Below, one piece after another: positions 5,956 through 16,176 of a stretch of 27,396 nucleotides of DNA. The notes under the pieces were generated by a model, which was not told the DNA's origin, did no database searches, and worked only from the letters and a program-made list of their open reading frames with translations. The position numbers were made by a program, and so were the translations under genes. Each line of letters opens with the position of its first letter. The stretch's first letter is position 1. Source of the stretch: a virus (Duplodnaviria > Heunggongvirae > Uroviricota > Caudoviricetes); IMG/VR virus record IMGVR_UViG_2541047887_000006. One strand, given 5' to 3'.

Positions 5956-8721
5956 ATGACGGCAGAGTACATCAGGGACTGGCAACAACCGCGCCACGCA
6001 GTGGGGCGTGAAGGAACGGGGATCCCCGCTCCTGAATCCGCGCTTTCCTCCTGGCTGGATGCCTACCGGGTAGAGAACGAGCGCCGCCAGGAAATGGCTG
6101 ATGCGGCGTTCTCCGCAACGCCGCTGGGCAACCTGATTAATAAAAGCCTGGACGCACAGGAAAAACAGGACAAAACCATCACACTGGCAGGAGATGCCAG
6201 AAAACAGGCACGCGGCGCGGTGGATGAAGCCATGGCCTCGCTGCGCCTGCTGCCGTCCTATCTGCGCGATCCGCTTATTCGCCACCTCTCCTTCCTGCGC
6301 AAAAAACAGGAAGCCGATCGTCAGAAAGGCAAAAAGAGCTGGCAGGCTGAACGCTACGCGCGCGGAAACCTGCGCAAAATATTCGAACGTCTGGAGCGCA
6401 CCGATCACCGCTGGCTGACACAGGGTTATCGCTCCCTTGCCGGACGCGAACGCCTGGACGATTTGCTTTACCTGCCGCAGCTCAACAAACACCAGATACA
6501 GACACTGGCCACCATGACGGCGGCGATGTTCAGCAGCACCTTCGAAAAACTCTGCGATGGCTTTGGCGCGACCGATGGCGAACTGACCATGGATGTAACG
6601 CTGAAGGCGTATCAGATGCTGGCCCGCATGGCGTTACACCTGCACGCCATGCCTCCACATTATGACGCACTGACAACAGACAAAGACCGGAGGAACGAAC
6701 CGGACACGGAGCTGCTGCCGGGCGCAATCCTTCGCCTGACCTGTGCAGAATGGTGGAAACGCAAACTGTGGCTGTTACGTTGCGAGTGGAGAGAAGAACA
6801 ACTCCGCGCCGCCTGTCTGGTTTCCAGAAAAACATCGCCCTATCTGAGCCAGGACGCGTTAAGCGAGTTTCGCGCACAGCGCGAGAAAACACGCGATTTC
6901 CTGAAAAGTTTCATGCTGGAAAATGAAGACGGGTTCACGATTGATCTCGAGACAGTGTATTACGCGGGAGTAAGTAACCCGGTTCACCGTAAGGCAGAAA
7001 TGATGGCCACCATGAAGGGGCTGGAACTTCTGGCCGAAGCCCGTGGTGACAAAGCGGTGTTTCTGACTGTCACCTGCCCGTCAAAATACCACGCAACAAC
7101 GGAGAACGGTCATCCGAACCCCAAATGGAACGGGGCCACCATGCGCGACTCCAGCGATTACCTGGTTAACACGTTTTTTGCGGCGGTCCGCAAAAAACTG
7201 AACCGCGACGGCCTGCGCTGGTATGGCATCCGCACGGTGGAGCCTCACCATGACGGCACCGTGCACTGGCATATGATGGTCTTTGCTCATCCGGAAGAAA
7301 TCGACAGCATCGTGGCCATCACCCGCGATATTGCCATTCAGGAAGATCGTCACGAACTGGGCGATGATATTACTCCGCGCTTTAAGGCGGAGTATGTCGA
7401 CGGCTCAAAAGGCACACCAACCAGCTATATCGCGACCTACATCGGAAAAAACCTGGACAGCCGCGCCGTAGATGGCATCGACCCGAAAACGGGCAAGCCA
7501 CGCGTTGACCACGAAACCGAAAAATCAATGGCCGAGAGCGTGGAGCGCGCCATTGGCTGGGCGCGTCTTCATCGGGTCCGCCAGTTCCAGTTCTTTGGCA
7601 TCCCCTCCCGTCAGGTATGGCGTGAACTCCGCCGCCTTGCCAGCCAGATGGCACGCAACCCGGAAGGCCCGCAACGGCTGAAGGATGATGCAATGGATGC
7701 GGTACTCGCTGCCGCTGATGCCGGGTGTTTTGCCTCCTACATTGAAAAACAGGGCGGCGTACTTGTTCCACGTAAAGACTACCTGATTCGCACCGCCTAC
7801 GACCTCGCAGATGAGCTGAACGATTACGGCGAGCAGAGTGTACAGATTTACGGGATCTGGTCGCCGCTCATCGGGGAGTCTTCCCGCGTGTGCACGCACC
7901 CGGATAACTGGAAGCTGGTAAGACGTAAACCGGAAGCGGAAGACAGCGCCCGCGAAAATGGTTTTGACCTTCAGGGCGGCCCTGCCGCCCCTTGGACTCG
8001 TGGCAATAACTGTCCCCGTGTACAGGAAACGGACAACAACGGGACAGAACAGCCGGAAGAACGGCCAGCACCGTGGCCGCAGCTTCCTGACGGCGTTGAT
8101 GTGGATGAATGGATGCGCTCACTGAAACGGCAAGAACGCCGGGCGCTGATGCGTTCGCTGCGTGACAAACAGGCAAAAAACAGCAGTGATGAAATGCAGA
8201 GCTGGACACAGAGCCGCAAACAGCAGCGGCCTTTGCCTGATAACCACGAATTACTCGCTAAAGAATGGCGGGAATCTGCTGAATCTCTCGGCCTGCATAT
8301 CGGTGAACAGCAGATGCAGCACCTGTTACGGGGCGGCAGCCTGTACGTTGACGGCAGCATCATTGCACCGCAGGGATTTGAAATTGTACGCAAACCGGAT
8401 ACCCGCCCGGACAGCCGAATCACGCAGCTCTGGCAGCGCCTGAGCCGTAATCACGGCGTAAGCAGCACGGAGATCCGCCATAACCCGGTCGCCAGCTATC
8501 TGGAACAGCTGGGGGCATCAGACCCCGAAGCCGCCGCACGCATGGTATCCACACTTCAGCAGGACCAGAACACCATGAAAACCCCCGTTACCGTGCTTTC
8601 TGACATGCTGCGCGTCATCCGTGACGCAGAGCACGCACAGAGAATCAATGAAACCACTGAACGCGCACGTCACAAGGCGGGTCTGTTGCAGGACAAAGGC
8701 AATAGCGAGAAGAAAAAATAA
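5956..8721 (+). CDS. A: P2 A-type rolling-circle replication initiation endonuclease
   Basis: 921 aa. HUH motif TVHWHMMVF and tyrosine pair SYIATYIGKN as in P2 gpA. Confidence 0.9.
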   Translation: MTAEYIRDWQQPRHAVGREGTGIPAPESALSSWLDAYRVENERRQEMADAAFSATPLGNLINKSLDAQEKQDKTITLAGDARKQARGAVDEAMASLRLLPSYLRDPLIRHLSFLRKKQEADRQKGKKSWQAERYARGNLRKIFERLERTDHRWLTQGYRSLAGRERLDDLLYLPQLNKHQIQTLATMTAAMFSSTFEKLCDGFGATDGELTMDVTLKAYQMLARMALHLHAMPPHYDALTTDKDRRNEPDTELLPGAILRLTCAEWWKRKLWLLRCEWREEQLRAACLVSRKTSPYLSQDALSEFRAQREKTRDFLKSFMLENEDGFTIDLETVYYAGVSNPVHRKAEMMATMKGLELLAEARGDKAVFLTVTCPSKYHATTENGHPNPKWNGATMRDSSDYLVNTFFAAVRKKLNRDGLRWYGIRTVEPHHDGTVHWHMMVFAHPEEIDSIVAITRDIAIQEDRHELGDDITPRFKAEYVDGSKGTPTSYIATYIGKNLDSRAVDGIDPKTGKPRVDHETEKSMAESVERAIGWARLHRVRQFQFFGIPSRQVWRELRRLASQMARNPEGPQRLKDDAMDAVLAAADAGCFASYIEKQGGVLVPRKDYLIRTAYDLADELNDYGEQSVQIYGIWSPLIGESSRVCTHPDNWKLVRRKPEAEDSARENGFDLQGGPAAPWTRGNNCPRVQETDNNGTEQPEERPAPWPQLPDGVDVDEWMRSLKRQERRALMRSLRDKQAKNSSDEMQSWTQSRKQQRPLPDNHELLAKEWRESAESLGLHIGEQQMQHLLRGGSLYVDGSIIAPQGFEIVRKPDTRPDSRITQLWQRLSRNHGVSSTEIRHNPVASYLEQLGASDPEAAARMVSTLQQDQNTMKTPVTVLSDMLRVIRDAEHAQRINETTERARHKAGLLQDKGNSEKKK

Positions 8722-8901: not shown

Positions 8902-10023
8902 ATGGGCGACTTAGGTGGTATTCAGTCAGATTTAGCCCAACTAGTTAGACTGGTAATAACTGAACAGTATGATGACGTTCGGTTATATGTCGCTCGCTTG
9001 GTGCGTAAATATCGGGAAACTATGCCTGCTCTATCCGAGCAGCTTGATCTTTATCTACGAAATAAACCGCAAAAGCCTGCACAAAGCCTGCGTAAGGTTA
9101 CCGCACCAAAACAAGCGCTGCCTCAAACCATGCCTGTGGACGAGGAGTCAAGGCTTACCTTGCTTAAAGCACCAAATGAAAAGATTGTGAGCAAACCTCT
9201 ACTGTCCAGTCAGATAGAAGACTCACTGGATCAAATTATTCTTGAGCGGAAGCACATCGATCGCCTCAAGACTCTCGGCTTACAACCAACACGCTCTGCC
9301 ATTTTTGTTGGCCCTCCGGGTGTAGGTAAAACACTTACGGCAAGCTGGTTAGCTCAGAAATTAGGGGTTCCTTTTTACGTTCTTGATTTAACGGCAGTAA
9401 TGAGCAGCTATCTGGGCAAAAGCGGAAATAACCTTCGGGCAGCTCTAGATTTTGCGAAGAAAGGGCCGTGCGTTCTTCTGTTAGATGAAATTGATTCAAT
9501 CGCCAAAAAGAGAAGTGATGATTCTGATGTTGGAGAATTAAAAAGACTTGTTACCGTGATACTCCAGGAGGTTGACGAATGGCCGTCTTCTAGTTTGCTA
9601 CTTGCTGCAACTAACTTCGCTGAGTTGATTGATCCAGCACTATGGAGACGTTTTGATTTAGTGCTCAATTTTGAGAAGCCAGATAGCGAAAGTATTAAAG
9701 AAGCAATTAAACGCTTTTCGGGTCCCGACTACGCGATTTTTGCACGTTGGATAGATCTACTGGCTATTATGTTCAAAAATGAATCTTTTAGTAATATTGA
9801 GCGTTCTATCAACAAATTCCGACGTTCGGTCGCTTTAGGTATTTCCTCAGATGAAGAGTTGATTGGGTCGTTCATTAAAGATGGTTTATCAGAATTAGAC
9901 AGGAATGAACGTAAAGAAATTGCAGTTACTCTAAAAAGAAATTCTAAATTATCCCAGCATGCCATATCAGACTTAACCGGAGTCAGTAGGGATACAATTA
10001 GAAAATACAGTCAAAAAATGTAA
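8902..10023 (+). CDS. AAA+ ATPase with C-terminal HTH-like tail; IetA-like by architecture
   Basis: Walker A GPPGVGKT, Walker B VLLLDEID. C-terminal LSQHAISDLTGVSRDTIRKY. 373 aa, first gene of the operon. Confidence 0.8.
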   Translation: MGDLGGIQSDLAQLVRLVITEQYDDVRLYVARLVRKYRETMPALSEQLDLYLRNKPQKPAQSLRKVTAPKQALPQTMPVDEESRLTLLKAPNEKIVSKPLLSSQIEDSLDQIILERKHIDRLKTLGLQPTRSAIFVGPPGVGKTLTASWLAQKLGVPFYVLDLTAVMSSYLGKSGNNLRAALDFAKKGPCVLLLDEIDSIAKKRSDDSDVGELKRLVTVILQEVDEWPSSSLLLAATNFAELIDPALWRRFDLVLNFEKPDSESIKEAIKRFSGPDYAIFARWIDLLAIMFKNESFSNIERSINKFRRSVALGISSDEELIGSFIKDGLSELDRNERKEIAVTLKRNSKLSQHAISDLTGVSRDTIRKYSQKM

Positions 10024-10046
10024 TACAGCATAGATAAGGAGTATGT

Positions 10047-12272
10047 ATGGCGAAAACTAATTTTCTGATTGGACGCGGCGAATTATTAACCAGCGATATT
10101 CCTGGTCCTAAAAGAGTGCCCGGAAAAGCTGAGGTTTATTCTCTTTACGAATCGAAACAACGTTTATTGCCGCAAATTGCATCTACTATAGAAAATTTTG
10201 ATGATTTACCCAGTCAGGCATGTCCTTATGATTATGCTGTGGCTAAGTTGACGTTGAATCCAAGCTATATTGCACGCTCTTTTTTTCCTGCAAAAATGCT
10301 TAAGTCTACCGGGTTAACGTCTATTGGCAGCAGGACGGTAAAAATTACGCCTCAAAGCTGGAAGCGAAAAGTTACTGTGTCAGAAGTAACTACGACACAA
10401 ATGTTTGTTGCTGGTAAAAGAGAATCCTTCAAAGAGTTACCTCATTGGGTGTCAGAACTCAAAGAGTTTTCTGACGAAGCGATTGATTTTGCACGCATAG
10501 AACGGTTCGATGCCTATTTACCCGAAGAGCGTATTATTACCATTGGTGAGCAGGATTCTTCGTATTTTGAGGTTGGTGTTCATTTACTGCCAGATAATGA
10601 ACAAGACTTGGTTCAGCAACAATTTGTTCAGTTTGCATCAAATTTGAACATCAAAGTACATACTTCATTAGCTTTTACCGCTGGTACATTATGGTTCGTG
10701 CCAATCCAGGCCGATAGAATTACTATTAGTAAGCTTGCGAAATTTACATTTGTACGAGTAATAAGACCGGTTCCAAGATTGCGTGGGATTAGACCAATAC
10801 AAAGGAACTACGGTCCTTTAGCTCAGTGTAAATTACCTGCTGAGGGCCCCGTATCTTCAGAAATAAAAGTTGCGATTCTTGATGGTGGTTTACCATCAGA
10901 GCACGCTATATCGCCATGGTTAAAATCCTATAGAGTTTTGGACGATCATGCAGAGGATGATCCAGACGGTTTAGAGCATGGTTTAGCTGTGTCTTCAGCC
11001 TTTTTATTTGGACCAATAAGTAATAAATCGGAAGCGAAAAGACCATACTCTTATATTGATAACTTAAGAGTTTTGGACAACAAGACCTGCCAAGAAGATC
11101 CGCTGGAACTATATCGAACTTTGGGCTTTATTGAAGAGGTATTGTTGTCTCGCCAGTATCAGTTTATCAATCTAAGTTTAGGTCCAGACCTACCAATTGA
11201 AGATACGGAAGTTCATGCATGGACTTCCGTTATTGATGATTTGTTAAGTGATGGTGAAACATTAATGACTGTTGCTGTTGGCAACAATGGAGAAATGGAT
11301 CGCAAGTCTGGTAATGCAAGAATTCAAGTACCAGCCGATTGCGTTAATGCTCTTGCTGTTGGTGCTTGTGATACAGTTAATGATACGGAATGGAAACGAG
11401 CACCATATAGCGCCATTGGGCCAGGCAGAAGTCCTGGCGTGATGAAACCGGATTTAGTTGCGTTTGGTGGTGACACAGACGAGTACTTTCATGTTTTAGG
11501 TAAAGGTAAGAAGCCTGTAATCATACCCCAGCTAGGAACAAGCTTTGCCTCTCCTTACGCCTTACGAGCAGCTGTTGGTGTTCGGGCAATTTTAGGGAAC
11601 GATTTGAGCCTACTAGCAATCAAAGCTTTGTTAATTCATGCGTCAAAACAGCTTGATCATCCTTGTACAGAAGTTGGCTGGGGAAAACTGCCTGAAGACT
11701 TGAACGACATTATAGTCAGCCCTGATGGTGTTGCCCGTATCGTCTACCAAGGTGAATTGAAACCAGGAAAATACTTACGCGCTTCTCTTCCAATACCTGA
11801 AGGTGGCTTGAAAGGTAGAATAAACTTAGCGGCAACTTTCTGTTATGCAACAACCACTGATCCACAAGACCCAGCTTCCTATACAAAAGCTGGTTTGGAA
11901 GTGACATTCCGGCCAAATGATTCAAAAATCAAAGACGGAAAACAAAATGCTGAAACCAAGGGATTCTTTGAACTGGCCAAATATTCAACTGAAAGTGAGC
12001 GACGTTCTGACATGGGCAAATGGGAGACCGTCTTACATAATTCGAAGAACATGCTAGGTTCAACTCTAAAAAATCCTGTATTTGACATTCATTATAACGC
12101 TCGTGAGGCCGGTGCAAGCATAGCCAGCCATAAGGCAGAAAAAATCAAGTATGCTCTTATAATTACCATTAAGGCATCAAAGCACCAAGACCTGTATAAC
12201 GAAATTTTACGTACTTATAATCAGGTGCTCGTGCCAATTCAACCGCAAACATCAATTCCTATTCGTTCGTAA
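10047..12272 (+). CDS. Subtilisin-like S8 serine peptidase, apparently cytoplasmic; IetS-like by architecture
   Basis: Catalytic Asp in VAILDGG, His in EHGLAVSS, oxyanion Asn in INLSLG, Ser in GTSFASPYA, in canonical D-H-N-S order. No N-terminal signal peptide. AAGGAG RBS 5 nt upstream; 23 nt downstream of the ATPase stop. Confidence 0.85.
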   Translation: MAKTNFLIGRGELLTSDIPGPKRVPGKAEVYSLYESKQRLLPQIASTIENFDDLPSQACPYDYAVAKLTLNPSYIARSFFPAKMLKSTGLTSIGSRTVKITPQSWKRKVTVSEVTTTQMFVAGKRESFKELPHWVSELKEFSDEAIDFARIERFDAYLPEERIITIGEQDSSYFEVGVHLLPDNEQDLVQQQFVQFASNLNIKVHTSLAFTAGTLWFVPIQADRITISKLAKFTFVRVIRPVPRLRGIRPIQRNYGPLAQCKLPAEGPVSSEIKVAILDGGLPSEHAISPWLKSYRVLDDHAEDDPDGLEHGLAVSSAFLFGPISNKSEAKRPYSYIDNLRVLDNKTCQEDPLELYRTLGFIEEVLLSRQYQFINLSLGPDLPIEDTEVHAWTSVIDDLLSDGETLMTVAVGNNGEMDRKSGNARIQVPADCVNALAVGACDTVNDTEWKRAPYSAIGPGRSPGVMKPDLVAFGGDTDEYFHVLGKGKKPVIIPQLGTSFASPYALRAAVGVRAILGNDLSLLAIKALLIHASKQLDHPCTEVGWGKLPEDLNDIIVSPDGVARIVYQGELKPGKYLRASLPIPEGGLKGRINLAATFCYATTTDPQDPASYTKAGLEVTFRPNDSKIKDGKQNAETKGFFELAKYSTESERRSDMGKWETVLHNSKNMLGSTLKNPVFDIHYNAREAGASIASHKAEKIKYALIITIKASKHQDLYNEILRTYNQVLVPIQPQTSIPIRS

Positions 12273-12285
12273 TCCTTCAAGACAT

Positions 12286-12316
12286 AATGCCCCTCAATTT
12301 GAGGGGCATTTCTTTG
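12286..12316 (+). terminator. Rho-independent terminator after the ATPase-protease operon
   Basis: 10-bp stem AATGCCCCTC / GAGGGGCATT, loop AATTT, then TCTTTG. Confidence 0.7.
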
Positions 12317-12341
12317 CACAAAAGTGCACAAATTTGCACAA
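12315..12341. repeat. Three direct TGCACAA repeats at exact 10-bp phasing
   Basis: tgcaca at 12315-12320, 12325-12330 and 12335-12340, followed by a T7 run. Confidence 0.8.
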
Positions 12342-12379
12342 TTTTTTTGAACGACTTTTTGCCCTTCCGGCCCGCATGG

Positions 12380-12500
12380 CGGCTGGATCCGTCAAGGATC
12401 CGTGCGTGCACAAAAAACGCGTTTTTCCTGCGCGCAGGTGACGGGGGAACAGCCCGCGTTTCAGGGGGTAAACAGCATTCCCTGAACGATGTCGCAGAGA
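12380..12500. other. Candidate cos region (cohesive-end site) of the P2-like genome
   Basis: Non-coding stretch between the A-side accessory genes and Q. G-rich block GGTGACGGGGGAACAGCCC at 12437-12455 matches 13 of 19 positions of the P2 cohesive end as I remember it. Position inferred, not verified. Confidence 0.25.
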
Positions 12501-12711
12501 CACAACAGAATGGCCATATTTCTCACGCTGAGCATGAAAAAGGCGTGAGGGCTTTTGATTTGATGGGGTGAAAGGTAAGGCCGTCAAAATCGCACTGAGG
12601 CAGCGAGAACATACAGTCAACGCGGTGGAATTGCGTAAGAGTCTGACCGTCGATGGTGGCGATAAACTGGAAGGCGTCGTGAAATTATCTGATTGATACA
12701 GGAGCTGGAGA

Positions 12712-12740
12712 GCCGGGGCATAAATTTTTTATGCCCCGGC
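12712..12740. other. Perfect 13-bp-stem hairpin (GCCGGGGCATAAA-TTT-TTTATGCCCCGGC)
   Basis: Read directly. No U-run on either side, so not a canonical terminator. Confidence 0.6.
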
Positions 12741-12839
12741 GAAGCAGCAGACAAGCGAAGCGCGTCAGCGATACGGCACCTTGCCGACCATACTTCATAA
12801 GTGCAAAATACGAGCAAAGAAATCAATGGAGGCTGTCTT

Positions 12840-13364
12840 ATGGTCATTAATTACAAGCAGTTAAGAGAAAAACGGGAGCAGGTAAAGGAGAGCTTTCGCC
12901 GCAATGAAGATCTGACCCCGCTTGTACGCCTTGCCCAGGGCATTGTTGATGCTTATGAAATCTCGCTGGAGCTGCCATCACAGACCTGGACAGATAGCGA
13001 CGGTAATCGCCAGCATTACGTTTCATGCGGACTGGAAGCAGCCGAAGGATTTCGCAGAATGCCTTTATCCCAGATCCCTGCCGCTACCCCCAAAGCACGG
13101 GGCAGCAATGATGAGCGAAAACTGACTTTTAGTATTGAAACGGTGGTTGACGACACACCTGGCGAAGTCGCGTTCGTGCACACGCCTGTTTCGATCGCAA
13201 TGTATAACGATGAAATACAGGTTCGCGTTAATAATAATATCGTGCCACTTAAAGAAGGTAATTCACCCTACACCACCGTTTGTGAAGCCATTCAATATTA
13301 CGTTCTCTCTGAAATTGATAATCTCAAGCCTGACGGCACCCAGAAAATGGTTCAACTCTGGTAA
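12840..13364 (+). CDS. Hypothetical moron protein (174 aa), convergent with Q
   Basis: ATG 12840 with GGAGG 7 nt upstream. Bracketed by the hairpin at 12712-12740 and the bidirectional terminator at 13370-13395. Confidence 0.6.
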   Translation: MVINYKQLREKREQVKESFRRNEDLTPLVRLAQGIVDAYEISLELPSQTWTDSDGNRQHYVSCGLEAAEGFRRMPLSQIPAATPKARGSNDERKLTFSIETVVDDTPGEVAFVHTPVSIAMYNDEIQVRVNNNIVPLKEGNSPYTTVCEAIQYYVLSEIDNLKPDGTQKMVQLW

Positions 13365-13369
13365 AAAGG

Positions 13370-13395
13370 ACAGCCCCATCACGGGGCTGTTTTTT
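13370..13395. terminator. Bidirectional rho-independent terminator shared by the moron (plus) and the P-Q operon (minus)
   Basis: Stem ACAGCCCC / GGGGCTGT, loop ATCAC, T6 on plus and T5 on minus. The Q stop codon lies in the loop. Confidence 0.7.
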
Positions 13396-14425
13396 CATCA
13401 AGAAGAGCATAAGAGTTAAAACGGATCACCTCTTCGCCAAGCCAGTCATTGATGTGCTTCATAGCCTCCATGACGGGCATCAGCTCGTTAATTGCGTAAA
13501 CCCGCGCTGCCTTCTCCACATCGCCAAACGCACTTTTTTCGCCCGGCATCGCCCCCATCAGTTGCGGCGGAACGCGGTGCGCAGCCAGCACATCATCACG
13601 GGATGCCGCCTTAACATTCATGAATTCATCTTTTGCGGTGATCTGCTGGAACGGCAAAATTTGCACCCCCTCTTTGCCCCCGTTGGGCGCATGAATGAGC
13701 ACGTTTTTAAACGCACCACCACCACGTGCCCCCTGTAGCGTTTCTTTCAGGGAGTCCATGCTTTCGCGGTTTACCTGCGCTGCACCGATGTAGATAATGC
13801 ACCCGGCGTGGGATCCGTTGTCGTAGTACAGTTTTCTGAACATGTCCGCCGAATGAGAAAGGCTGGCCGAGAGTAATGCGCCAAGATATTCCGGCATGCC
13901 GTAGATTTCCTGGTTAATATCCGGATTCATCAGGTGGCACACTTTGCCAGGACGAAACTGAAACGCGTCCTTGCCATCCTGCACATACCACCATGATTCA
14001 AGATCGCTTCCGCGTCGCATGTATTTCGCCAGGGCGTGCCGTAATTTAAGCGGTTCGCCGAGCATATTGCTTCGAAGCTCAAGGAATGCGTTACCGAACA
14101 CAAACCAGTCCAGCGCCAGCGCCGAGAAATCCTGCCGGGAAAGCAGCGGGTGCGGGATGTAGCAACCGAGTAATACATTGCGCTTAAAGTAAAGCGCAGA
14201 CTGATGCCAGGACGTTTGCCGGGCTGCTCTTGCCAGACCGTACCAGTCCACCGGGGTTTCATACCACCGCCCGTTATCAGCACAGTACATATTGTCCAGC
14301 AGGTCATGCCCGGTCAGGCGATAAGGACCATCAAATGTGAATGCACTGAGCGATGATTCTTTCCTGAGCGCATCAGCGAGATCAATGCGTGAACTCATGC
14401 GCACTTTTTTATTTTTTCTGCTCAT
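13379..14425 (-). CDS. Q: Portal protein
   Basis: 348 aa matching P2 gpQ pattern (HNGRWYETPV, FVFGNAFLE, PDINQE, HAG.I.Y). ATG overlaps the P stop (TGATG). Confidence 0.92.
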   Translation of the reverse strand: MSRKNKKVRMSSRIDLADALRKESSLSAFTFDGPYRLTGHDLLDNMYCADNGRWYETPVDWYGLARAARQTSWHQSALYFKRNVLLGCYIPHPLLSRQDFSALALDWFVFGNAFLELRSNMLGEPLKLRHALAKYMRRGSDLESWWYVQDGKDAFQFRPGKVCHLMNPDINQEIYGMPEYLGALLSASLSHSADMFRKLYYDNGSHAGCIIYIGAAQVNRESMDSLKETLQGARGGGAFKNVLIHAPNGGKEGVQILPFQQITAKDEFMNVKAASRDDVLAAHRVPPQLMGAMPGEKSAFGDVEKAARVYAINELMPVMEAMKHINDWLGEEVIRFNSYALLDEKTAP

Positions 14426-16176
14426 CAGAACTCCATAACCGTGAAACGCTCGTTTTCTCCTTCGCCGCCAATTGGTTCGTTAATGACAGCAAGCATGGTT
14501 GCCCACGCAAGGTCGCCGTGGCTGATCCCCCTCGCGCGGTCCGTTTCGTAAGTGATAAAGCCGCCCGGTGTTTTCACCTTACGCACGGCGTTAAAGGCTG
14601 CGACCAGCTCGCGTTCGGCGCGATCGTATTCCCACCGCCCGGCACGCATTATTTGCAGCATTTTCAGTACCAGCGACCGTTTTGATGACAGCGTGAAGGT
14701 GTACGGAATAGCAGCAGGGAAAAACCGTTTCACTATCTGATAAACAGCCTCCCCGTTCCCGCCTGTCACATCAATGCCGATGTGTTCCACGTTGTAGCGA
14801 CACGTGAACTCTTCAATGACTCTGGCCTGTTCTTCAAACTCCAGCCCCTGAACGCGTCGCGTCTCCACCGTTCGAAAACGGCCGCCAGGAACAGCCGGAG
14901 GAACCACCACGGACACAGCGCCGCTGTCGCCGTTTCCACTGCTGCCGTTTGCGTCATACCCAATCCATACCGGACGATTCCCCATCGGGCGGGGAGCAAA
15001 AGGTTTCCAGTCTTTCCAGTCGTCGTATCCGTCAACACCGCAGCCAATCAGGATATTCAGGTTAAATGCCGATTCCCCTTCGCGGACAAACTCACACATA
15101 TAGAGATTGAGGAACTCGTCTTCGGTGTTTTCATCACGAATTTCGTCGATATCGGTGTGTTTCCAGCCGTGATTAACCACATCTTCCAGCGTGACAATTT
15201 GCCGCCACGTCCGGTCAGGGCAGATAAGCCCGTTATGCAGCGTTTTCCAGTCCACAGAAAAACGCTGGCGTTTATGCGAGGCCTTTTTCTCGTTCCAGCG
15301 GTCGCCGTTCCAGTAGGCGTATGCCTCGTGCGTTTCGGTGGATGGCGTGGAGAAGTAGGTGCGCCGCAATCCGCTGAGGGTTGCCATAGCGCCAGCCACC
15401 TTGCGCAGTTCAGCAAAGCGACTGACCCAGAAAAATTCATCAAAATAAAAATTGCCCGTATAGGACTGCGCCGACGCAGCAGAAGTGCCGAGAAAATGCA
15501 GCTCTGCGCCGTTGGAGAGGATGATTTTATCGCCCCCTTTCAGCTCCACATCAACTTCAGCCGCAGCCTTCTGAATAATGCTTTTAAACTGGAACGCCTG
15601 ACGACGCGACGCAGACAAAAAAATCTGGTTACGCTGGTAAGGTTGCGCCACATCGTCACGCAGCGCCATCAGCAGTGCTTCCTGTGCAAAATACCAGGTC
15701 GCGCCAATCTGTCGGGATTTCAGGATCATCCTGTTACGTATCCCGGCTTCCCTGCAAAGGGTCAGGGAGTCAAACCAGCCCCGCTGATGCCACTCCAGCC
15801 TGCTGATGATTTTTTCCCGCAGTGCGGCAATCTGTTCCGGCGTGAAATGATTTTTGAGTTTTTTCGCCCGGCCTTTCTTTCCTGTGGCCGTCGCATCCGG
15901 CTGGCCATCATGCATTTTTTTAAGCTGCCGGGTCAGCAGGTCTATTTCCTTAAAGTCACCGCCTGTTTTATTCTGTTTTTCAGTAAGCTGGATGAGGCGC
16001 GCATCGATGGACTGCGTGACACGCTGCACGGGTGGCGTTTCATCCCACTGGTCGCGTTTTTTCCACGCATAAATCGTGTTCGGGTTTATTCCCATCAGAC
16101 GTGATATTTCTGCGGGCGGATAACCCTGCCAGTAAAGTTGCCGCGCACGCTGGCGCACAAAAGCGTCCTGAATCAT
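14425..16176 (-). CDS. P: Terminase large subunit
   Basis: 583 aa immediately upstream of Q and divergent from O, matching the P2 gpP position and size. Confidence 0.9.
   Translation of the reverse strand: MIQDAFVRQRARQLYWQGYPPAEISRLMGINPNTIYAWKKRDQWDETPPVQRVTQSIDARLIQLTEKQNKTGGDFKEIDLLTRQLKKMHDGQPDATATGKKGRAKKLKNHFTPEQIAALREKIISRLEWHQRGWFDSLTLCREAGIRNRMILKSRQIGATWYFAQEALLMALRDDVAQPYQRNQIFLSASRRQAFQFKSIIQKAAAEVDVELKGGDKIILSNGAELHFLGTSAASAQSYTGNFYFDEFFWVSRFAELRKVAGAMATLSGLRRTYFSTPSTETHEAYAYWNGDRWNEKKASHKRQRFSVDWKTLHNGLICPDRTWRQIVTLEDVVNHGWKHTDIDEIRDENTEDEFLNLYMCEFVREGESAFNLNILIGCGVDGYDDWKDWKPFAPRPMGNRPVWIGYDANGSSGNGDSGAVSVVVPPAVPGGRFRTVETRRVQGLEFEEQARVIEEFTCRYNVEHIGIDVTGGNGEAVYQIVKRFFPAAIPYTFTLSSKRSLVLKMLQIMRAGRWEYDRAERELVAAFNAVRKVKTPGGFITYETDRARGISHGDLAWATMLAVINEPIGGEGENERFTVMEF

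Follow-up and report, generated by a model that had tools for sequence, protein, structure and literature searches.

Why should a prophage built on the plan of phage P2 carry a lone gene without annotated relatives in the narrow space between its cos-proximal region and the gene for its portal protein? The question is raised by the IMG/VR virus record IMGVR_UViG_2541047887_000006, a stretch of 27,396 nucleotides (nt) that was analysed at full length and is called the window here, in which an open reading frame (ORF) for a protein of 174 amino acids (aa) faces the portal gene Q. Comparison with related phages indicates that this ORF lies within a 628-bp insert (12769–13396, + strand) made up of a leader, the ORF, a bidirectional terminator and the 3′ end that Q now has, and that the insert is best read as a single-gene moron at an already known insertion site, the junction between the left cohesive end (cosL) and Q. 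Our best explanation overall, to which we give a probability of roughly one half, joins this insertion to a protein that would act as a binder in conflicts among phages or between phage and host, with exclusion as the best guess for its role.

The insert can be delimited precisely by alignment with the phages P88, P88_4B11 and 500465-2, which lack the ORF and in which the backbone continues directly into the Q stop codon. Homology between the window and these phages ends at 12768 and restarts inside Q at 13397; both borders are sharp (12768/12769 on the left, 13396/13397 within the last codons of Q on the right), and the ORF is present or absent between phages of the P88 type that are otherwise collinear. 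At the left border, at the end of the backbone homology, lies a fossil of the ancestral Q stop (12765–12767, − strand; TCA on the + strand and TGA on the − strand), with which the P88 Q stop aligns. At the right border the cassette supplies the portal gene (Q, 13379–14425, − strand; Pfam Phage_portal, E = 8.3e-18) with its last five codons and stop (EKTAP and stop, 13379–13396, − strand), where a comparison of portal C-termini with and without the cassette gives TQPTS as the ancestral tail. Base composition sets the insert apart only modestly, with a GC content of 47.6% in the cassette, 51.4% in the backbone and 52.9% in Q, and with third-position GC (GC3) of 0.48 versus 0.59 in the cassette comparison.

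These borders revise an initial annotation of the locus, made from the sequence alone, which had the cassette bounded upstream by a perfect 13-bp hairpin and downstream by a bidirectional terminator with the Q stop codon in its loop. The hairpin itself is there (12712–12740; 13 bp, 100% complementary, 3-nt loop), with folding energies of −31.6 and −29.3 kcal/mol, z = −6.7 against shuffled sequences and no T tract on either strand. As the left edge of the cassette it is ruled out by the alignment: it is a backbone element common to phages without the ORF, in which it lies ~25 nt past the Q stop. The downstream boundary stands as described. The terminator (13370–13390), intrinsic in type, encloses the TGA of Q at 13379–13381, has TTTTTT after the stem on the + strand and CCTTTTT on the − strand, and reaches z scores of −5.8 (+ strand) and −4.1 (− strand) against shuffled sequence; because a run of A precedes the stem and a run of T follows it, it should read on both strands and serve both the ORF and the Q–P operon. 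A moron of 628 bp has, on this evidence, entered a P88-type P2-like prophage between the ancestral hairpin behind Q and the last codons of Q, bringing with it the ORF and its strong ribosome-binding site (RBS), the bidirectional terminator and the new five-codon tail of Q.

Is the reading frame a gene at all? It is more than a chance reading frame, and everything that the initial annotation had said of it (174 aa, a good RBS, convergent orientation to Q) can be read directly in the sequence. The ORF (12840–13364, + strand; 525 bp) opens with ATG at 12840, 7 nt downstream of a GGAGG RBS (12828–12832, + strand), and closes with TAA at 13362–13364. The ATG is taken as the real start because MVINY opens every homologue, which rules out the start at GTG 12801 (187 aa) given in a program-made ORF list. 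The product is a cytoplasmic protein of 19.8 kDa with an isoelectric point (pI) of 5.0, and the phrog_5091 profile matches it at E = 1.4e-67, with residues 1–168 on profile positions 1–164 of 164; it is thus a full-length member of that family and differs from it in nothing. Orthologues that are likewise convergent to an adjoining portal gene share 88%, 63% and 56% identity with it (in E. coli, Salmonella and another E. coli lineage, respectively). The ratio of nonsynonymous to synonymous substitution (dN/dS) relative to the window ORF is 0.12 for the 88% orthologue and 0.07–0.08 for orthologues of 96–97% identity, which indicates purifying selection, and 62 columns are invariant among orthologues at 46–96% identity. 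Synonymous divergence in the ORF is 2–4 times that of the adjacent portal gene, so that the gene, constrained as it is, has either a higher rate of evolution than the portal gene or a history of more exchange.

Salmonella enterica strain s1 (CP191473.1, L013) encodes the E. coli-type protein at 97% identity, whereas typical Salmonella orthologues have only 60–63%; a copy of this kind under a Salmonella label suggests either that the prophage has recently crossed from one genus to the other or that the record is mislabelled. A 100%-identical copy is also encoded in two records that were deposited under the label of E. coli plasmids (NZ_MK439959.1, 228 kb; CP054248.1, 542 kb).

It is informative to ask how often the junction is filled. 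A query made by joining the two flanks was searched in 5,426 complete E. coli genomes and detected the junction in 1,098, while 397 of the genomes hold at least 80% of the interval 12273–13400, or ~36% of junctions and ~7% of genomes; carriers include ST131, O111:H8 and other human isolates. The initial annotation had suggested comparing this junction across relatives, and in the P88-type phages, both by alignment and in 60 sampled E. coli rows with the two flanks joined, the ORF is present or absent with exact borders. The sampled junctions span either 814 bp (empty) or 1428 bp (filled), with one divergent case of 1385 bp, and every one is empty or holds a phrog_5091 member, with no other cargo among them. 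The flanks of filled junctions are mostly 97–100% identical to the window and those of empty junctions mostly ~93–94%, a split which argues that the cassette largely follows a backbone sublineage and is not frequently gained and lost. In this sample, then, the junction next to Q does not behave as a hotspot with rapid exchange of genes. Upstream of the cos block, carriers differ in their cargo independently of the ORF, and this cargo includes ParM/partition, XF1762-family, ASCH-domain, ClpX-type zinc-finger, Ead/Ea22-like and HTH/Peptidase_M78 proteins. One E. coli genome, DG343-1 (L042), is instructive in another way: the family member that adjoins its Q gene has 26% identity to the window protein (hidden Markov model E = 1e-24) and was inserted to the left of the same 13-bp hairpin, which consequently lies between the member and Q, and its Q retains the ancestral C-terminus. 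This arrangement implies at least two separate entries of the phrog_5091 family into the junction, one to the left of the hairpin and one to its right.

A word-indexed search returned close relatives alone, in E. coli, Salmonella and Trabulsiella, and a profile search of genome contigs with a narrow family alignment returned two loci only; a HMMER profile scan yielded 89 cluster representatives (E < 1e-3), most of them 155–175 aa long and 21–33% identical, from named sources that comprise E. coli, Salmonella, Klebsiella, Serratia, Trabulsiella, Xenorhabdus, Edwardsiella and Providencia. All 54 aligned members match phrog_5091, which is catalogued as a family of unknown function. The names attached at source to the window protein and its distant relatives are “hypothetical” or “uncharacterized” with one exception: an Edwardsiella protein of 161 aa bears the NCBI label “site-specific integrase,” apparently by misannotation. 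Among 50,697 deposited phage genomes the family is found in five, four of them P2-like (P88-type) and one lambdoid, and in no known virulent group; chromosomal homologues were not seen, and the family is confined to phage contexts.

Where these relatives sit was taken from five look-ups and 24 IMG/VR loci. Some occupy the gap from the late (Q) antiterminator to the holin; others lie between the spanin and HNH/TerS/TerL genes (at several lambdoid loci), in the gap from tail chaperone to tape measure, within or before baseplate clusters of the E217/Pam3 type, and directly 3′ of a P22-type ant gene. In a P2-like prophage of Trabulsiella the relative directly follows gpA, beside HicB and Phd-Fic, and in phage CharmingMan it neighbours genes annotated for tellurite resistance and for a TciB-like product. 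These loci share no conserved neighbouring family. Of 34 listed loci, several being almost identical copies, 31 have a terminator-like GC-rich hairpin with a T run at most ~75 nt downstream. One 51.7-kb record (IMGVR_UViG_2627854076_000003) holds two divergent paralogues, L015 and L026, in a baseplate cluster and after a spanin gene. Judged from these neighbourhoods, the family moves from one temperate Enterobacterales phage to another as a unit of its own, which has no conserved partner gene and in most cases a terminator behind it.

We read the insert as a moron because of its presence and absence in collinear phages, its own terminator, its slightly lower GC content and the position of its relatives at the moron sites of unrelated phages; the initial annotation had likewise placed a moron of one gene between the cos region and the portal gene, and this part of it has held up well. 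Since the isolated phages P88, P88_4B11, 500465-2 and others lack the ORF, it is judged, on comparison of genomes and not by deletion, to be dispensable for the phage. Morons were reportedly described by Juhala and colleagues in 2000, in HK97 and HK022, as units of promoter, gene and terminator within late operons. The insert resembles such lambdoid morons in being a single gene that is present or absent between collinear genomes, in having its own terminator and, to a modest degree, in its deviating base composition, and phrog_5091 relatives occupy the Q–holin and Rz–terminase gaps of lambdoid phages; it differs in that lambdoid morons have a promoter, for which the cassette offers just a weak candidate.

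A scan for promoters upstream of the ORF returned none; the candidate, a tentative sigma-70 promoter, TTGCCG-17-CAAAAT (12781–12809, + strand; 8/12 matches), falls below the threshold of the scan. The orthologue L046 has the same hexamers; in the Salmonella orthologue L043, where the spacer has diverged, the site still reads TTGTCT-17-CAAAAT. Inspection by eye of the region upstream of the ORF revealed no Ogr-type late-promoter element (TGT-N12-ACA). In 17 of 31 family loci the best promoter-like site lies at about −60 from the ATG, but it is ruled out as a conserved promoter, being an in-frame N-terminal extension of 12 aa (MLIRNxxxMEKx) with its own RBS in many members. This extension (in L017, L019, L020, L022, L032, L035, L037 and others) lies ~36–40 nt ahead of the MSITY start, comes with a Shine-Dalgarno sequence of its own and varies synonymously at third positions; the subfamily of the window lacks it. 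Members that have it may use two alternative starts.

What kind of protein is made? The initial annotation had recognised no motif in it, and profile and structure searches have added phrog_5091 alone: the ORF protein has no match in Pfam, NCBIfam, PADLOC or the PDB, and profile searches of 54 relatives against Pfam, NCBIfam and PDB sequences gave nothing meaningful. PADLOC gave no family for the ORF protein and two marginal single matches (E ~0.005–0.009) for the 54 relatives. Neither the protein nor these relatives matched ArdA, KlcA/ArdB, Ocr-like or other anti-restriction and anti-defence families that have Pfam models, and the ORF protein shows no catalytic, membrane or DNA-binding signature, no signal peptide and no regulator domain. 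Conservation is concentrated in a basic N-terminal helix (MxITYxDIRKKRxQ) and in the motifs AYxxSLxLPxxxWxDxxGxxxxYV, FxIxTVxDDxPxGG and VCExIK; among the conserved residues are Y39, S42, D104, D105, C148, E149 and Q152, the last being K in most relatives. With a deep alignment, AlphaFold confidently predicts (predicted local distance difference test score 89.9, predicted template modelling score 0.80) a beta sheet of ~8 strands, with two helices on its N-terminal side and a single one at the C-terminus. Foldseek searches of the PDB and BFVD with this model returned no match at E < 0.001 and merely generic alpha+beta ones; the PI31/Fbxo7 FP domain, Mog1/PsbP-like proteins, DUF1795-like proteins (DcrB, SciW, PA0094), Imm52 and P1 DarA have 3–11% identity and deviate from the model by 3–9 Å (root-mean-square deviation), and such likeness of a predicted structure is insufficient for claiming a shared fold family. 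The product would be a soluble alpha/beta protein that is non-enzymatic in appearance.

It is also worth considering how this locus relates to places already known to accumulate genes. The cosL–Q junction of P2-like phages has been called a foreign-gene hotspot, with ORF1–4 of phiRSY1 as an example (PMC5694545), and that paper, in its passage on the hotspot, cites Dodd and Egan (1996) for phage 186 and Nakayama (1999) for phiCTX. Insertions such as those of phiRSY1 occupy the same position, from the left cohesive end to the portal, and are likewise non-essential extras that leave the Q–P operon undisturbed; they involve other gene families, in contrast to the sampled P88-type E. coli junctions, where phrog_5091 is the sole occupant. 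In addition, the whole interval from gpA to gpQ is a published defence hotspot of P2-like phages (Rousset et al. 2022, PMC9122126; also PMC13586616). The ORF lies inside this interval, with the conserved cos block between it and the swapped cargo, to which it does not belong; the cargoes with which it co-occurs are many and different. It differs from the defence systems of the hotspot in that neither a defence domain nor a PADLOC model is matched, and no report credits it with anti-phage activity. In the supplementary table of PMC9122126, the last “hypothetical” before gpQ is, in at least 167 instances, the RefSeq protein WP_000236495, an orthologue (read in L003) with 96–97% identity; a search of the literature text for this accession and for the phrog_5091 identifier found no mention of either, the accession occurring just in that table. 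Compared with the old and tin genes of P2, the ORF is likewise single, non-essential and cos-proximal, and the role proposed for it (lysogenic conversion) is similar to that of Tin, Old and Fun(Z), although the proteins are unrelated.

Hence a moron at the cosL–Q site is already known as a kind of feature, and the family is catalogued as phrog_5091; what is new here is the exact anatomy of the insert, its prevalence, the independent double insertion, the moron behaviour of the family as a whole and the lack of a structural relative. The gene is common and under purifying selection, and it stands at the edge of the best-studied prophage defence hotspot, where it has so far been tabulated as “hypothetical.” If the product proves to be an exclusion or counter-defence factor, a widespread family will be added to the catalogue of phage conflict; otherwise this is an ordinary moron. 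Because it is a single gene of 525 bp with natural presence and absence variants, it makes a cheap and well-posed experimental target.

What, then, might the moron do? The protein would bind its target stoichiometrically, without catalysis, and serve conflict between phages or between phage and host; the best single guess is a prophage-expressed exclusion (lysogenic-conversion) factor transcribed from its own weak promoter. Because the family is restricted to temperate phages, has the architecture of a moron and neighbours a defence hotspot, we tentatively assign it a role in exclusion or defence, at somewhat less than an even chance. The more general proposal that phrog_5091 represents a new single-protein conflict module of unseen fold, either an exclusion factor or an immune inhibitor that acts by binding only and whose alleles set target specificity, comes just short of even odds. 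Several observations weigh against the preferred explanation. Stand-alone defence proteins usually bear an effector domain or a membrane segment; the ORF protein has neither, which suits an anti-defence inhibitor about as well, and no PADLOC model, whether of a defence system or a candidate, matches it. The gene runs in the direction of the late genes in most other phages, an orientation that would give expression in the lytic phase and not in the lysogen. The candidate promoter is weak and is absent in the orthologue L045, and the hairpin upstream has no U tract, so that read-through from an early or hotspot transcript is possible.

Some of these points are what one would expect of an anti-defence protein, a small acidic soluble phage product that neutralises an immune protein of the host or of a rival element, or sequesters an immune signal, and whose alleles target different variants. 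The protein is indeed small, soluble and mildly acidic and has no catalytic motif, most phages keep its gene in line with lytic-phase operons, and replacement by a distant allele at the same locus (L042) as well as two paralogues on one contig are typical of genes in an arms race. Nonetheless, most known anti-defence genes lie in early regions, and this family is found at late or moron sites; it is nearly absent from isolated and virulent phages (the five deposited records noted above), its own downstream terminator suggests autonomous expression, and Pfam relates it to neither ArdA, KlcA, Ocr nor any other catalogued family. We regard this alternative as unlikely, though it ranks second. Lysogenic conversion of the host outside phage conflict, for example by a modulator of stress response, growth or virulence, appears more doubtful still: moron architecture, the frequency of the gene in clinical lineages and the annotated tellurite resistance and TciB-like neighbours in CharmingMan would all fit, yet strain sampling is biased towards clinical isolates, the protein has neither signal peptide, membrane segment nor regulator domain, and its family keeps to phage contexts with no chromosomal homologues seen.

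The position of the gene invites a further thought, that it is an accessory intrinsic to the phage that aids or regulates the terminase, the portal or the DNA ends during packaging or the handling of cos. It adjoins the cos region and the portal in every P2-like lineage that has it, several lambdoid loci place it just before HNH, TerS and TerL, and the conserved basic N-terminal helix has the consensus IRKKRxQ...KR..R. The initial annotation had held that conservation at this position in all P2-like phages, with a structural or packaging role, would speak against a moron; the ORF is absent from P2, from P88 relatives including the isolated P88 and P88_4B11, and from ~64% of matching E. coli junctions that are otherwise 93–94% identical, which is not the fixed conservation of a component of the virion or of packaging. 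Other members lie far from packaging genes (in tail and baseplate clusters, after ant, in the antiterminator–holin gap), and no DNA-binding domain is matched. Because close relatives lack the gene and other members are so placed, a packaging role is disfavoured, and we think it the least probable of the explanations considered. A moron whose product binds a partner in phage conflict remains the reading that we prefer.

The surrounding phage can be placed with some precision. The initial annotation had called it P2-like, with a cos region beside the portal gene; P2-like it is, though from its sequence it belongs with P88 (the Xuanwuvirus group) and not with P2 proper, and the label cos is given by position. 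The order of the region is gpA (5956–8721), IetAS, cos block, ORF and Q, and the terminase gene P (14425–16176, − strand) follows, P and Q both facing the ORF. Between the hotspot cargo and Q lies a conserved non-coding backbone block (12308–12768), presumed to hold cos, that is 92–99% identical to P88-type phages (Xuanwuvirus and relatives), whether they carry the ORF or not, and not to P2. A search that allowed up to 3 mismatches did not find the P2 cos core GGCGAGGCGGGGAAAGCAC, and BLAST of the P2 cos junction against 12273–12840 gave nothing significant. As there is no similarity to P2 cos, the site is placed by the conserved block and by the opening point of the linear record of the relative P88_4B11, which is equivalent to 12359/12360 of the window. 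At the corresponding position P2 has just cosL (1–19), the terminator tQ (160–181) and Q (187–1221), with no gene between them, in line with the initial annotation.

The hotspot cargo of the window itself is a defence pair of genes for IetA (AAA ATPase, 373 aa) and IetS (S8 protease, 741 aa) at 8902–12272 (+ strand), identified by PADLOC at E = 1e-77 and 1e-51. The pair has a GC content of ~41%, versus 52% for the window, and is followed by a perfect 12-bp hairpin terminator (12286–12310). Four (T/G)TGCACAA sites lie on one strand within 100 bp (12314–12341 and 12406–12413, + strand), three of them exactly 10 bp apart, just left of the P88_4B11 opening point; their count over the window is not above chance, and the clustering alone is notable. 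In P88-type phages, whose cos differs from that of P2, such sites may bind the terminase or form part of cos. In the same conserved block (within 12385–12436) there is a direct repeat of GGATCCGT, 11 bp apart, which makes two BamHI sites, and 3′ of these repeats a 17-nt imperfect palindrome (TGCGTGCACAAAAAACG/CGTTTTTCCTGCGCGCA). A 42-aa ORF (MKGKAVKIALRQRE...; 12568–12696, + strand) is likewise conserved in the backbone and bears the annotation “hypothetical” in P88. The record of E. coli DG343-1 (L042, 5193–5399) annotates this small ORF as an in-frame fusion to the divergent phrog_5091 member, 236 aa in all; since an RBS and an ATG precede the family domain, the fusion is probably an over-extended start call.

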